Source: Candidatus Fervidifonticultor tertius
Lineage (GTDB): Bacteria; Sysuimicrobiota; Sysuimicrobiia; Sysuimicrobiales; Humicultoraceae
NCBI GenBank assembly: GCA_031459235.1
Contig: JAVKIY010000007.1
Coordinates: 200-64,199, forward strand
Direction: 5' to 3'
DNA: 64,000 nucleotides
Made by a program: the position numbers and the translations under genes. Below the pieces are notes generated by a model. The model did not search any database. It saw only the letters and a list, made by a program, of their open reading frames with translations, and had not been told where the DNA came from. This document shows, piece by piece, positions 45,539 to 49,842 of the stretch. The stretch's first letter is position 1. Every line of letters begins with the position of its first letter.

Positions 45539-47977
45539 CTACCTGGCGACCACGTTCACGAGCCGGCCGGGCACGACGACGACGTCGGCCACGGTCTTGC
45601 CGTCCAGGTGCTGCCGGATCTTCGGGTTGGCCAGCGCGAGCGCGCGCGCCTGCTCCGCGCTGATACCCGCGTCCACCTCCACCCGGTCGCGCACCCGGCC
45701 GTTCACCTGGAGGACCAGGGTCACGCGCGGTGCGGTCGCCTTCGCGGCGTCGTAGGCCGGCCAGGGCTGATCGTGGACGCTGTAGGCACCACCCAGGTGT
45801 TCGACCCACAGCTCCTCGGCGATGTGCGGGCACAGCGGCGCCAGCAGCAGGACCAGCGCCCGGACGGCCTCGTCCCACAGCGACGCCGACGCCGAGGTCT
45901 GCGCGCGCTGCAACACGTTGGTGTACTCCATCAGCGCGGCGAGCGCGGTGTTCCAGCGAAACCCCTCCATGTCATCGGTCACTCGCCGGATGGTGCGGTG
46001 CATCCAGTATTCCAGCTCGCGGGCCGACACGCCCGCGCCCGCCGCCACGGTCTTCGCTGGGCCGGTGACCAGCGTCCAGACCCTGGTCAGGAACCGGGCG
46101 ACGCCCTCGATACCCCGCGGGTTCCACGGGCCGCCCTGATCCCAGGGCCCGATGAACATCAGGTACGCGCGCAGGGTGTCGGCGCCGTAGCGCCGCACCA
46201 GTTCGTCGGGGTTGACGACGTTGCCGCGCGACTTGCTCATCCGATTGCCATCAGGCCCCAGGATGATGCCCTGGTTGAACAGGCGCAGCATCGGCTCGCC
46301 GAACGCGACCAGGCCGAGGTCACGCATGACCTTGGTCCAGAACCGCGTGTAGAGCAGATGCATGACCGCGTGCTCCACCCCGCCGGTGTATTGGTCTACC
46401 GGCAGCCAGTAGCGGCCGGCCTCGGGGTCGAACGGGCGGTCGGGGTCGTGCGGGCTTAGGTACCGGTACTGGTACCACGACGAGTCGACGAACGTATCCA
46501 TCGTATCCGTCTCGCGCCGCGCCGCGCCGCCACACGACGGGCAGGCCGTGTGCAGGAACCCCTCGTGGTAGCGTAGCGGCGACTCGCCGGTCGGCCGGAA
46601 CGCGGCGTCCTCGGGCAGCCGGACCGGCAGGTCGCGGTAGGGCACGGGCACGACCCCGCACCGGTCGCAGTAGACGATCGGGATGGGCGTGCCCCAGTAG
46701 CGCTGCCGGCTGATCAACCAGTCGTGCAGACGGTAGTGAACCTTGCGCTCGCCGATGCCGCGCCGGACGATCTCGTCGGCCACCCGCCGCCAGCCCTCGT
46801 CCGATGGCAGCCCGTCGAAGGGCCCGGAGTTGACCATGGTCCCCTCGCCCAGGTAGGCCTCCCGGAGCGGCTGGCCGTCCCAGCCCGGCGGCGCGATGAC
46901 CACCGGAACGGGCAGGTCGTACTTCCGCGCGAAGTCGAAGTCGCGCGCATCGTGCGCCGGCACGCCCATGATGGCGCCGGTGCCGTACGTCAGCAGCACG
47001 TAGTCGGCGACGTAGACCGGGACCGGCGCCTGGCTCATCGGGTTGATCGCGTAGGCGCCGGTGAAGACCCCGTCCCGCTCCCGCTCGGTGGACAGCCGCT
47101 CGATGTCCGACTCGCGGGCGGCCTTGTACTTGTAGGCTTCCACCGCCGCGCGTTGTGCCGGCGTCGTCAGCGCGTCCACCAGTGGGTGCTCGGGTGCCAG
47201 CACACAAAACGTCATCCCGTAGACGGTGTCGGGCCGCGTCGTGAACACGCGGAACGCCGCATCCGGGTGATCGCGCACGCGGAGCTCGAACTCGACGCCC
47301 TCGCTCCGGCCGATCCAGTTGGTCTGGAGCGTGCGCACCCGCTCGGGCCACTCGATGCCGGAGAAATCGAGCAGCTCGTCGGCGTACGCCGTGATCTTGA
47401 GGAACCACTGTTCCAGGTTCTTCTTCACGACCGGCGTGCCGCACCGCTCGCACACGCGCTCCTCGCCGACGACCTGCTCGCGCGCCAAGGTGGTGTTGTC
47501 CTTGGGGCACCAGTCCACCGGCGCCAGCGCGCGGTAGGCCAACCCGCGCTCGTACATCTTCAGGAAGAACCACTGGTTCCAGACGTAGTACTCGGGGTCG
47601 CAGGTGACCACCTCGCGCTGCCAGTCCCACATCGCGCCCATGGACCGGAGTTGCCGGCGCATGCGCTCGATGTTGTCCATCGTCCACCGGTAGGGGTGGA
47701 TGCCGCGCTCGATGGCCGCGTTCTCCGCGGGTAGCCCGAAGGCATCGAACCCGATCGGCAGCATCACGTTGTAGCCGCGCCGCCGCTTGTACCGGGCGAG
47801 CGCGTCCGAGGGGCCCATGGGGTACCAGTGGCCAACGTGGAGGTCGCCCGAGGGATACGGGTACATCGTGAGCAGGTAGAACTTCGGGCGCGGGTCACCG
47901 TCGGGCGCGTGGTGCAGCCCGTCGGCCTCCCACCGGGCCTGCCACTTCGGCTCGATCGTCGCCGGGTCGTACCGCAT
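45539..47977 (-). CDS. leuS: Leucine--tRNA ligase
   Basis: MRYDPATIEPKWQARW, HVGH (HIGH) and KMSKS motifs, 812 aa. GGGAGGA lies 6 nt upstream of the ATG at 47977. Confidence 0.95.
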   Translation of the reverse strand: MRYDPATIEPKWQARWEADGLHHAPDGDPRPKFYLLTMYPYPSGDLHVGHWYPMGPSDALARYKRRRGYNVMLPIGFDAFGLPAENAAIERGIHPYRWTMDNIERMRRQLRSMGAMWDWQREVVTCDPEYYVWNQWFFLKMYERGLAYRALAPVDWCPKDNTTLAREQVVGEERVCERCGTPVVKKNLEQWFLKITAYADELLDFSGIEWPERVRTLQTNWIGRSEGVEFELRVRDHPDAAFRVFTTRPDTVYGMTFCVLAPEHPLVDALTTPAQRAAVEAYKYKAARESDIERLSTERERDGVFTGAYAINPMSQAPVPVYVADYVLLTYGTGAIMGVPAHDARDFDFARKYDLPVPVVIAPPGWDGQPLREAYLGEGTMVNSGPFDGLPSDEGWRRVADEIVRRGIGERKVHYRLHDWLISRQRYWGTPIPIVYCDRCGVVPVPYRDLPVRLPEDAAFRPTGESPLRYHEGFLHTACPSCGGAARRETDTMDTFVDSSWYQYRYLSPHDPDRPFDPEAGRYWLPVDQYTGGVEHAVMHLLYTRFWTKVMRDLGLVAFGEPMLRLFNQGIILGPDGNRMSKSRGNVVNPDELVRRYGADTLRAYLMFIGPWDQGGPWNPRGIEGVARFLTRVWTLVTGPAKTVAAGAGVSARELEYWMHRTIRRVTDDMEGFRWNTALAALMEYTNVLQRAQTSASASLWDEAVRALVLLLAPLCPHIAEELWVEHLGGAYSVHDQPWPAYDAAKATAPRVTLVLQVNGRVRDRVEVDAGISAEQARALALANPKIRQHLDGKTVADVVVVPGRLVNVVAR

Positions 47978-48002
47978 GCGCGTCCTCCCGCCGGGTGCCG
48001 GC

Positions 48003-48935
48003 TCAGGCACCGGAGAGCACGGGCACCGGGGTCAGCCAGCCGTGCCGGTCGGGCAAGCGTCCCGCGGTGATGCCGAAGAACTCCTCCTGTAGCCGCGCCG
48101 TGATCGGGCCGCGGCGGCCCGCGCCCACGGGCACGCGGTCCACGGACCGCACCGGCGTGATCTCGGCGGCGGTGCCGGTGAAGAAGACCTCGTCGGCGAC
48201 ATAGAGCATCTCGCGGGGGATCGGCATCTCCCGCACCTCGATCCCCAGGTCGCGGCACAGCCGCAGCACGACGGTGCGGGTCACGCCGCCCAGGATCGAG
48301 GCGGCCAGCGGCGGGGTGAGGACCACCCCGTCCCGAACCACGAAGAGATTCTCTCCGCTGCCCTCGCTGAGCGTCCCGCCCACGTCCAGGGCGATACCCT
48401 CGGCGAACCCATTGTCCGTCGCCTCCATCACGACGAACGCCGAGTTCACGTAGTTGCCGCCGATCTTGCCCATGCCCGGGTGCGTGTCCGGGGCCATGCG
48501 GCGCCAGGAACTCACCATGACGTCCACGCCCTGCTCGATCGCCTCGGCGCCGAGGTACCGGCCCCACTCGATGGTGATCACCGCCACGTGGAGCGGGCAC
48601 TTCCGGTGGTCCACGGCGAACGACTCGACGCCGCGGAACACGACCGGCCGGATGTAGCAGCTCCGGTGGCCGTTGGCGCCGACGGTGTCGAGAATCGCCC
48701 GCGAGAGCTCCTCGCGGCTGTAGGACAGCGGCATCCGAAAGATGCGGCAGGAGTCCTCCAGCCGCCGCACGTGCGGTTCCAGGCAGAAGACCGCCGGGCC
48801 GGAGGCGGTCTCGTAGCACCGGATGCCCTCGAAGACGCTCGACCCGTAGTGGACGACGTGCGCGGCCACGTGGATCTTCGCGTCCTCCCAGGGCACCAGC
48901 GCCCCGTCCATCCAGATCCGACTCGACGCCTTCAC
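48003..48935 (-). CDS. ilvE: Branched-chain amino acid aminotransferase
   Basis: IWMDGALVPWEDAKIHVAAHVVHYGSSVFEGIRCY. The start is the GTG at 48935 (GGGGG 8 nt upstream) or at 48944. The listed ORF extension to 49067 runs through the T-box terminator and a tRNA and is not coding. Confidence 0.88.
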   Translation of the reverse strand: MKASSRIWMDGALVPWEDAKIHVAAHVVHYGSSVFEGIRCYETASGPAVFCLEPHVRRLEDSCRIFRMPLSYSREELSRAILDTVGANGHRSCYIRPVVFRGVESFAVDHRKCPLHVAVITIEWGRYLGAEAIEQGVDVMVSSWRRMAPDTHPGMGKIGGNYVNSAFVVMEATDNGFAEGIALDVGGTLSEGSGENLFVVRDGVVLTPPLAASILGGVTRTVVLRLCRDLGIEVREMPIPREMLYVADEVFFTGTAAEITPVRSVDRVPVGAGRRGPITARLQEEFFGITAGRLPDRHGWLTPVPVLSGA

Positions 48936-48948
48936 CGCCGTCACCCCC

Positions 48949-48989
48949 AGAAAACAGCGACGCCGCCTCGTCCCAGGGACGAAGGCGGC
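48949..48989 (-). terminator. T-box terminator helix plus U-tract
   Basis: GCCGCCU(U)CGUCCC ug GGGACGAGGCGGC (48989-48962), then GUCGCUGUUUUCU with UUUU at 48954-48951. The 5' arm can alternatively pair with the T-box sequence to form the antiterminator. Confidence 0.7.
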
Positions 48990-49022
48990 CTCCGCGGTAC
49001 CACCCCGGTTGACAGGCGCATC

Positions 49023-49097
49023 TGGTGGACCCGAGGGGAATCGAACCCCTAACCTCCCGCACGCCAAGCGGGCGTTCTCCCGTTGAACTACGGGCCC
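49023..49097 (-). tRNA. tRNA-Ala (anticodon GGC), CCA encoded
   Basis: GGGCCCG-UA-GUUC-AACGGGA-GAAC-G-CCCGC-UUGGCGU-GCGGG-AGGUU-AGGGG-UUCGAUU-CCCCU-CGGGUCC-A-CCA. All four stems are perfect cloverleaf pairs. U33, purine 37, the G3:U70 alanine identity pair and A73 are present. Confidence 0.93.
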
Positions 49098-49296
49098 GGA
49101 TGCCTGTCCGCTTGTCCCCGTCTCGTGGGGCCGCCGGTGGAGGCTACGGCGTCAGGTCGCCTCCACGGCTCGCGGGCGAGTTCGGCCCGGCCGCCGGTCG
49201 GATCGCACCCGCTCCCGACTCTCTCGACGGCAGCCCGTCGGCCTACTGCTCCCGGTCTTCGCCGGTCTGGCGATGGGCGACGCGCCCATCGGTGGC

Positions 49297-49326
49297 ATTA
49301 TAGCCATCGGGGCGAAACAGCGTCAA
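49297..49326 (-). promoter_or_regulatory. Near-consensus sigma-70 promoter driving the T-box leader / tRNA-Ala / ilvE-leuS
   Basis: On the minus strand: TTGACG (49326-49321), 18 nt, TATAAT (49302-49297). Confidence 0.7.
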
Positions 49327-49356
49327 CACGCGCCCCAACGCCGGCGGCGAGATGCC

Positions 49357-49842
49357 TCAGAGCTTGTACCCGAACCGCCGCAAGAGGTCCTTCCGCCACG
49401 CCACCTCGCCGGGGTCCTCTACCCCGAGGGGGACCTGGCCGTCCAGCACGCCGAGCACCCCGCGCTGGTCGCCGTCGGCGGCCACGACCACGCGCAACGG
49501 GTTCGCCGTCGCACAGAAGACGCGGACCACCTCGGGGCAGGCCTTGACAGCATGGAGGACGTTGATCGGAAAGAACCCGTCGCCGAGGACGACGACGAAG
49601 ACGTGGCCGGCGCCGATCGCCTGCGCGTTGCGTGTCGCCAGGTCGACCAGCGCGTCGTCGGTGCCGGAGCGACGGATCAGCCGCTTGCCGCTCGCCTCGC
49701 AGAAGGCCAGGCCGAACCTGATCCCGGGCACCGCGGTGACCATCGCCTCGTGCAGGTCCTCCACCGTCTTGATGAAGTGGGCCTGCCCGATGATCACGTT
49801 GAGCGTCTCGGGCTTCTCGACCGGCACCAGGGTCAGCTCCAC
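49357..49842 (-). CDS. Adenosine-specific kinase family protein (PF04008-like)
   Basis: LNVIIGQAHFIKTVEDLHEAMV...PGIRFGLAFCEASG...GAGHVFVVVL...PINVLHAVK...VVRVFCATANP. Confidence 0.7.
   Translation of the reverse strand: MELTLVPVEKPETLNVIIGQAHFIKTVEDLHEAMVTAVPGIRFGLAFCEASGKRLIRRSGTDDALVDLATRNAQAIGAGHVFVVVLGDGFFPINVLHAVKACPEVVRVFCATANPLRVVVAADGDQRGVLGVLDGQVPLGVEDPGEVAWRKDLLRRFGYKL

Follow-up and report, generated by a model that had tools for sequence, protein, structure and literature searches.

A tRNA-Ala(GGC) gene nested in the Stem III loop of a leucine T-box leader of the leuS operon, conserved in several bacterial phyla

Canonical T-box leaders (Rfam family RF00230), such as those of Bacillus subtilis leuS, tyrS, thrS, and glyQS, have a Stem I with K-turn and specifier loop, a Stem II, a Stem IIA/B, a Stem III flanked by the purines RRRxG...AA, a UGGN bulge, and mutually exclusive antiterminator and terminator structures. 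Here, we describe a leader that shares these features, along with a Leu specifier upstream of leuS, but that carries a complete, non-cognate tRNA-Ala(GGC) gene of 75 nucleotides (nt) in the Stem III loop; some lineages of this nested class hold about 100 nt more. It lies on the minus strand of a 64,000-nt stretch of Candidatus Fervidifonticultor tertius (assembly GCA_031459235.1, contig JAVKIY010000007.1, positions 200 to 64,199), which we refer to as the window. Coordinates are window positions, and loci from other genomes and metagenomes carry L numbers. Based on the anatomy of the locus and its comparison with relatives, we consider it likely, with good confidence, that a functional tRNA-Ala(GGC) is nested in the Stem III loop of a functional, terminating Leu(CUC) T-box of the leuS operon and is co-transcribed with it.

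Several described systems resemble parts of this arrangement. The tRNA-Ile/Ala genes of 16S-23S spacers and the E. coli thrU-tyrU-glyT-thrT-tufB operon are transcribed from shared promoters, and their tRNAs are released by RNase P and 3' processing. Those tRNAs lie between functional units, whereas the nested tRNA lies inside a folded sensing domain. Extra RNA at peripheral discriminator loops is also found in stem Sa of staphylococcal glyS leaders and in the Stem III/A2 insertions of translational T-boxes (PMC9177973, PMC7583486), but these are plain hairpins with no gene product, while the insert described here appears to be an independently functional gene and recurs across phyla. The nearest precedent is the GOLLD RNA, likewise a large structured non-coding RNA with a complete tRNA inside (PMC12990946). 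GOLLD is not a cellular-operon riboswitch leader, whereas the host here is a tRNA-sensing regulator and the insert occupies a specific functional helix. The B. subtilis thrS leader (RNase Y/J1) and the Staphylococcus aureus met leader (RNase III) are cut near or upstream of the terminator, which affects turnover and stability (PMC8096251, PMC7913692); in the nested class, the expected cutters would instead be tRNA-maturation enzymes, and one product would be a tRNA. B. subtilis trnSL-Ala1 is a monocistronic tRNA-Ala with a close terminator hairpin (PMC1874595), which two degenerate loci in our set (L121 and L141, below) resemble, but it is free-standing, with an 8-nt 5' leader and no surrounding T-box. 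We considered it as a relic of the nested arrangement and rejected this, as it is monocistronic with its own terminator (PMC1874595). In the searchable full-text literature, we found no account of a T-box that contains a tRNA gene, although comparative T-box surveys may mention one in passing; an earlier note on this DNA had also known of none, and the arrangement is apparently undescribed.

The leader of the window is composed of the following elements, and every coordinate that the earlier note had given was re-derived identically.

48972..49268 (-): T-box leader, the whole RF00230 match including an 82-nt tRNA insertion (model 1-219, 51.6 bits, E 2e-10)
49271..49292 (-): 5'-terminal hairpin CCGAUGGGC...GCCCAUCG, between the -10 box and Stem I; also in L083 and L044
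49167..49262 (-): Stem I, with the GA/K-turn region GAAGACCGGGAGCAGUAGG (49260-49242) and the specifier loop GAA-CUC-G
~49224-49219 and ~49209-49203 (-): distal parts of Stem I, AGAGAG and the distal GGUGCGA loop, respectively (RF00230 alignment)
49178..49180 (-): specifier codon CUC (Leu), within GAA-CUC-G at 49183-49177
49116..49166 (-): Stem II (49166-49137) and the Stem IIA/B region (49136-49116), from the RF00230 alignment and the fold
49109..49113 (-): purine motif AAGCG, corresponding to RRRxG on the 5' side of Stem III (motif re-derivation)
49099..49108 (-): Stem III 5' strand GACAGGC (49108-49102) with AUC extension (49101-49099), from alignment, fold, and covariation
49023..49097 (-): tRNA-Ala(GGC) gene, with G1 at 49097, anticodon GGC at 49065-49063, A73 at 49026, and encoded CCA at 49025-49023
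49009..49022 (-): Stem III 3' side, comprising GAU (49022-49020), a GC bulge, GCCUGUC (49017-49011), and the conserved AA (49010-49009)
48992..49006 (-): T-box sequence GGGGUGGUACCGCGG, with the UGGU bulge (49002-48999) that pairs with the tRNA 3'-ACCA end
48949..48989 (-): terminator hairpin GCCGCCUUCGUCCC-UGG-GACGAGGCGGC (48989-48962), followed by UGUUUUCU (48956-48949)

The tRNA is the sole ARAGORN call across the 64-kb window, and the Rfam tRNA model RF00005 accepts the same interval with 66.8 bits (gathering score 29; E 2.4e-12). Its sequence reads G1-C72, G2-C71, G3:U70, A73, and an encoded CCA. The identity elements for AlaRS are the G3:U70 wobble pair and A73, and both are present. Thus, the complete, canonical tRNA-Ala(GGC) that the earlier note had read from the letters is recognized by both predictors. 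The note had also called this tRNA non-cognate, and indeed its anticodon GGC does not correspond to the Leu specifier CUC. In three genes of the window, GCC accounts for 50 of the 121 Ala codons.

In E-value mode, RF00230 aligns end to end (1-219) at 48972-49268 (-), placing Stem I and the antiterminator in one alignment that flanks the tRNA, as the earlier note had predicted of a T-box covariance model. The sole insertion in this alignment is 82 nt long and falls in the Stem III hairpin loop, between GGACAGGC and GCCUGUC; without it, the match measures 215 nt against the 219 positions of the model. Two further proposals, that the helix around the tRNA occupies the Stem III position and that the leader would have ordinary length without the tRNA, agree with this alignment. 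The minimum-free-energy fold of the whole leader recovers the proposed interrupted 10-bp clamp as a 7+3-bp helix (49108-49099 with 49022-49011) enclosing the cloverleaf. The description of the tRNA as an insertion into the Stem III loop is correct as to position, but not as a local event, since the architecture is conserved across phyla. The folding energy of the whole leader is close to that of shuffles (z-score -0.9), a measure that is weak at 72% G+C.

The individual parts of the riboswitch are all recognizable. Stem I has its GA/K-turn, specifier loop, and distal loops, aligned with high posterior probability. A T-box discriminator is defined by a Stem III flanked by RRRxG and AA, a UGGN bulge, two helices, A1 and A2, the second of which has a G-U pair at its base, and a terminator that competes with the antiterminator; the window reads AAGCG-GACAGGC...GCCUGUC-AA and GGG-UGGUACC-GCG...CGU-CCC, and then the terminator. 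The 5' strand of the terminator overlaps the 3' strand of the antiterminator, and its hairpin (48989-48962) has a folding energy of -39 kcal/mol (z-score -2.9). The specifier matches the regulated genes, with a Leu codon ahead of ilvE-leuS.

The same nesting recurs widely. A scan of 185,579 species, each represented by a single genome, for a T-arm followed by the T-box sequence (GGTTCRANTCC-N{20,50}-GGTGGNACCGCG) gave at least 119 loci; the pattern demands G52-G53, U60, and ACCGCG and is not exhaustive. ARAGORN places a same-strand tRNA-Ala(GGC) over the pattern in 107 of the 119 matches listed, and these 107 together with the window make up the 108 leaders of our conservation counts. The remaining matches listed include several nested loci that are cut by the locus end, and the others are chance resemblances. 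Since the same nesting recurs in 107 of the 119 matches listed, chance resemblance is excluded as an origin of the arrangement itself. Nested tRNA species other than Ala(GGC) are absent among the matches listed. Four candidates for a second kind were rejected: L034 (Thr) and L095 (Leu) are tRNAs without a T-box, the T-box of L031 contains a string that resembles a T-arm by chance, and L020 is a transfer-messenger RNA (tmRNA).

The carriers belong to several phyla. By record label, the nested tRNAs among the matches listed divide into 58 Chloroflexota (Thermomicrobiales, Limnocylindria, Chloroflexia, Anaerolineae, Ktedonobacter, and Caldilineae), 31 Bacillota (Syntrophomonadaceae, Peptococcaceae, Desulfofundulus, Desulfitispora, and others), three Armatimonadota/Fervidifonticultor, two Coprothermobacterota, and 13 others, which are unclassified or bear labels that are possibly mis-binned, e.g., Methylocystaceae and Bacteroidales. 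Isolate genomes are among the carriers (L036, Desulfofundulus; L064, Desulfitispora; and L045, Thermosyntropha, in which the tRNA is cut by the locus end), which rules out an artefact of metagenome-assembled genomes (MAGs). GAA-CUC-R stands at the specifier position in 103 of the 108 leaders, and leuS is found downstream of the leader in each of the 105 loci that extend far enough (matches listed plus the window). Across nine diverse nested loci, RF00230 spans the tRNA at full length every time, and five of the nine exceed its gathering score (133.2 bits in L012, then 119.7, 115.9, 104.7, and 93.7 bits). The comparison with related leaders suggested in the earlier note thus found the same nesting in at least 107 other loci, in leuS operons. 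The nested tRNA-Ala/Leu T-box is a conserved architecture, present in more than 100 species of several phyla.

Both parts of the architecture carry signatures of selection. The nested tRNAs comprise 59 distinct sequences, and in the 108 leaders they keep a 7-bp acceptor stem (108), G3:U70 (107), A73 (107), and an encoded CCA (85). In 37 diverse copies, not one cloverleaf pair is broken, compensatory double changes occur in 15 of 21 pairs, and the GGC anticodon and G3:U70 are invariant. Altogether, these comparisons show that the tRNA is under selection as a tRNA. A U precedes G1 in 72 of 104 distinct flanks, whereas T makes up 24% of the flanking sequence nearby. Bacterial RNase P prefers U(-1), and the enrichment fits this preference. 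From the invariant GGC, U(-1), and the heavy use of GCC codons, we predict that the nested tRNA is matured, aminoacylated, and used in translation.

For the riboswitch, we anchored Stem III on sequence motifs alone, using the last RAGNG before the tRNA and an AA 4-5 nt before GGTGG, and scored the seven pairs adjacent to these anchors. In 76 distinct sequences, 79.3% of the Stem III cells hold standard pairs, compared with 57.5% in shuffled alignments and 23-43% with slid partners. Double changes fill 152 cells where 57 are expected, the covariation score is 0.63 vs 0.24, and none of 500 shuffles reached the observed values. RAGNG is kept in 101 of the 108 leaders, and AA in all 101 anchored ones; the purines RRRxG...AA that flank Stem III are essential for sensing aminoacylation (PMC7583486). 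The CGUCCC-type antiterminator strand is kept in 102 of 107 leaders, and a U-rich tract follows the terminator in 96 of 107. These patterns of substitution show that the riboswitch is under selection as well. The linkers between the two parts are free to vary, with 3-28 nt on the 5' side (base of Stem III to G1) and up to ~100 extra nt on the 3' side. We also considered the GCC in "CUCGCC" as a second (Ala) specifier and rejected it, as the bases after CUC vary (GCC, GUC, GUU, ACC) and belong to the Stem I helix.

The two parts share one promoter position.

49297..49326 (-): sigma-70-type promoter, TTGACG (49326-49321), 18-nt spacer, TATAAT (49302-49297), 11 of 12 matches

Shuffled sequence is expected to contain 0.0 such TTGACG-18-TATAAT sites, and the promoter scan found no second promoter-like site in 48700-49600. 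TATAAT is invariant and TTGAC is conserved in six relatives of the clade. In a census of loci that reach 330 nt or more upstream (97 loci), promoter-like sites concentrate 175-225 nt ahead of G1, right before Stem I, and the sigma-70 consensus scan found none within 70 nt upstream of the tRNA. The single near-consensus promoter on the same strand that the earlier note had proposed is the one promoter-like site upstream of the leader in the window, and in the 97 loci its counterparts cluster ahead of the whole leader. From this shared promoter position, we infer that the tRNA and the riboswitch are co-transcribed. The hairpin at 49271-49292, at the predicted 5' end of the leader, may act as a 5'-end stabilizer.

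Natural variants indicate how tightly the two parts are bound to each other. A metagenome scan with the 24-nt anticodon arm of the window's clade gave 49 matches, 42 of them bacterial; in 38 of the 42, the T-box sequence follows 17-126 nt after the tRNA, and two more are cut by the contig end. An RNA-independent sample of 10 loci, picked by LeuRS similarity, has tRNA-Ala(GGC) linked to the leader in all 10, nested in eight and in tandem in two. The tandem locus L173 (1047-1500) has the order promoter, tRNA-Ala(GGC), second promoter, ordinary T-box with plain Stem III, ilvE, leuS; in L174 (1781-2370), the order is tRNA-Ala(CGC), tRNA-Ala(GGC), plain T-box, leuS. With the tRNA outside a plain T-box in both, these loci argue that the switch does not need tRNA-Ala within it, and the linkage of tRNA-Ala(GGC) to the leuS leader outlives the nesting. 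The opposite loss is seen in L121 (tRNA from 643, +) and L141 (tRNA from 3843, +), which have lost Stem I, Stem II, and the 5' strand of Stem III but retain the tRNA, the terminator hairpin, and ilvE behind a TTGACG-17-TATAAT site located ~20 nt before the tRNA; in L141, a deletion of 23 nt in comparison with L121 has removed the T-box bulge as well. Together, these variants indicate that, of the two partners, the tRNA persists longer and that it uses the promoter of the leader. Judged from these variants, the two functions are separable. A possible route between the states is a duplication of the leader followed by complementary losses.

The related loci hold further variants. In L127, L128, L140, L146, L150, L153, L155, L161, and L170 (1560-1800), ~90-100 nt of extra hairpins flank the tRNA within Stem III, either on one side or on both, and the T-box sequence starts 107-126 nt past it; the T-box of L170 escapes Rfam at E<=0.001. 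The leader of L143 (~1100-1200, -) is complete as far as the CCA of its nested tRNA, and the next 1150 nt are unrelated and without a T-box, possibly because an element has integrated at the 3' end of the tRNA or because the contig is chimeric. Stem I is truncated in L090 (2046-2501, -), which keeps the K-turn and the CUC specifier and lacks the distal platform, and in L144, which has no recognizable specifier loop and carries GAUGGUACC in place of GGUGGUACC. The seven other metagenome matches (L126, L130, L133, L134, L151, L152, and L160) have low-GC flanks and different acceptor and D arms, and their tRNAs are probably archaeal; in L130 and L152, the anticodon arm runs into non-tRNA sequence, which may reflect an intron or a split gene.

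Under the reading that we favor, a functional tRNA nested in a functional riboswitch, polymerase would start upstream of Stem I, with one promoter serving both products. Stem I and Stem II would bind the anticodon and elbow of tRNA-Leu(GAG). On emerging, tRNA-Ala would fold autonomously, and Stem III would close beneath it and present the RRRxG...AA purines to the antiterminator. The UGGU bulge would then test the 3' end of the bound tRNA-Leu, and either the terminator or the antiterminator would form, with uncharged tRNA-Leu(GAG) sensed in the normal way despite the insert. Because the tRNA is upstream of the terminator, terminated and read-through transcripts would both contain pre-tRNA-Ala. 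We infer that RNase P at the 5' end and 3'-end enzymes excise it, the latter by an endonucleolytic cut and exonucleolytic trimming where CCA is encoded and by RNase Z where it is not. The attenuated leader, otherwise wasted, could in this way become a productive tRNA precursor, and excision would detach Stem I and Stem II from both the discriminator and the mRNA. The pairing of Ala with Leu looks historical rather than mechanistic. We compared the anticodon with the specifier, which it does not match, and the bases that follow CUC, which vary, and found no mechanistic link. The exclusivity of Ala(GGC) among the nested matches listed points to a single origin kept by the need for both products; most simply, the nesting is one ancient arrangement retained since both functions are needed.

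Several observations weigh against this reading. At Rfam gathering thresholds, no T-box is reported in this region of the window (51.6 vs 93 bits). The shortfall coincides with the 82-nt insertion and a 30-bit composition bias, and several nested leaders, including that of the window, fall below the gathering score because of the insertion penalty. The U-tract of the window's terminator is short and stands 5 nt off the stem, and for the latter reason a simple terminator scan misses this terminator. In the leader fold, the 3-bp AUC/GAU extension leaves a single unpaired nucleotide 5' of G1, which might slow RNase P. L173 and L174 demonstrate that nesting is required for neither function. In favor of the reading, a free-standing tRNA-Ala(GGC) was found in 0 of the 42 bacterial metagenome matches, a search that a diverged second copy would escape.

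The alternatives differ mainly in what they ask of the tRNA and of its position. Excision could itself be part of regulation, setting the stability of the ilvE-leuS mRNA or the turnover of the terminated leader; this is compatible with our favored reading, and we regard it as possible, at odds clearly below even. The tRNA lies ~25 nt upstream of the T-box sequence, near the thrS-type cleavage site; in B. subtilis thrS, the cut in the leader falls 6-9 nt before the terminator (PMC8096251), and the title of Condon et al. 1996, as listed there, credits this processing with a major role in thrS induction. An RNase III cut in the S. aureus met T-box likewise sets mRNA stability (PMC7913692), and cleavage of these two leaders, which affects turnover and mRNA stability, makes an added regulatory role conceivable. 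The U(-1) enrichment suggests efficient cleavage by RNase P, and the Stem III position is conserved across phyla. Such a role is disfavored by relatives whose Stem III is plain and whose tRNA lies outside the leader, and by linkers whose wide variation in length and sequence argues against a precise processing-dependent structure. More generally, a regulatory role for the nesting itself is conceivable but unsupported, and we rate it as rather improbable. The stronger version, in which co-transcriptional folding and excision of the tRNA are built into the riboswitch output and the nesting is functional itself, seems unlikely to us. If it held, the OFF transcript would be a productive tRNA-Ala precursor. 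Excision from the ON transcript would sever Stem I/II, and the new 5' end, protected by a hairpin, would tune either the stability of the ilvE-leuS mRNA or the threshold of the switch. The same riboswitch would in this way both sense tRNA and serve as a substrate for tRNA processing, the kinetics of which would be part of gene control.

We give far less credence to the tRNA being a tRNA-like structural module of the riboswitch, such as a Stem III scaffold, a termination timer, or a cis decoy with an elbow that competes for the Stem I platform. Its fixed place inside the discriminator domain would suit such a module, and Stem III/helix A2 insertions in other T-boxes have been proposed to aid folding or tRNA contact (PMC7583486, PMC9177973). 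A scaffold or timer, though, needs no invariant GGC, G3:U70, A73, encoded CCA, or U(-1); the tRNA is kept beside a decayed T-box in L121 and L141 and outside the leader in L173 and L174, and ~100-nt extra hairpins are tolerated next to it. Two overlapping but independent units, a tRNA with an internal promoter and a T-box that is a relic or separately transcribed, appear just as improbable. The un-nested L173 does have one promoter-like site for the tRNA and another for the T-box, and sigma-70 consensus scans can miss true promoters, notably at 72% G+C. Against this stand the 97 loci with no site within 70 nt upstream of the tRNA, which include AT-rich Bacillota where one would be easily seen, the location of the tRNA between the strands of a covarying helix, and T-box elements that in most loci are conserved rather than decaying. 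An assembly or binning artefact, or a chance resemblance, is effectively refuted by recurrence: the window and most related loci do come from MAGs, and some labels look mis-binned, but the same arrangement is found in more than 150 independent assemblies, including isolate genomes, with substitutions that are lineage-consistent and compensatory.

A riboswitch with a complete, separate gene inside its sensing domain is new for T-boxes, as far as the literature was searched. Folded RNA of 75-200 nt is accommodated at the tip of Stem III with the discriminator motifs intact, which is useful for the structural biology and engineering of T-boxes. The default attenuated transcript is probably a tRNA precursor and not waste, and this opens the question of how tRNA-processing enzymes and a co-transcriptional switch share one transcript. 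The nested, T-box-degenerate, and un-nested tandem variants provide a small model for the resolution of overlapping genes. Real T-boxes that fall below the Rfam threshold also suggest that the regulation of leuS is under-annotated in Chloroflexota, Armatimonadota, and relatives.

Annotation of the tRNA itself may be confused in another way. By definition, a tmRNA has a tRNA-like domain, a tag-peptide reading frame, and pseudoknots in ~350 nt. We rejected a tmRNA (RF00023) as the identity of the nested element, as the matches cover only the 75-nt tRNA with 41-45 bits (gathering score 47) and ARAGORN reports no tmRNA. On the nested copies L002, L003, L036, L062, L064, and L072, competition within the Rfam clan lets the tmRNA model displace that of the tRNA. 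This displacement is presumably due to the Ala-type acceptor stem and is a possible source of mis-annotation.

Downstream of the leader, the window encodes two genes on the same strand.

48003..48944 (-): class IV aminotransferase, ilvE-like (Aminotran_4, E 7.7e-47; 302 aa with start 48911 in the public record)
45539..48010 (-): leuS, leucine-tRNA ligase (TIGR00396, 968.6 bits; 812 aa with start 47977 in the public record)

The first gene after the leader in the 105 informative loci is leuS in 70, a GNAT gene followed by leuS in 22, and ilvE followed by leuS in 11, including the window; in two of the 105, an acyl-CoA-synthetase-like gene precedes leuS. The earlier note had taken ilvE/leuS as the regulated unit. 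This stands for leuS, which is present in all 105, while ilvE is a clade-specific passenger. The GNAT gene between leader and leuS encodes an acetyltransferase of ~185-195 aa (Pfam Acetyltransf_1) and occurs in 24 Chloroflexota loci, e.g., L003, L011, L016, and L021.

The LeuRS of the window is 100% identical to a protein in the Armatimonadota MAG GCA_031081715.1 (contig JAVHMA010000005.1), where the leader and tRNA fill a 445-nt gap between an adenosine-kinase-family gene and ilvE. An adenosine-specific-kinase-family gene (PF04008) also lies directly upstream of the leader in the window (49357-49842, -) and in L175 (612-1103), whose LeuRS is 80% identical to that of the window and in which the 5'-side synteny is conserved. 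In L170 (5578-8130), L177 (5004-7430), and L178 (5136-7499), a second, tandem LeuRS paralogue of 787-850 aa follows the T-box-controlled leuS.

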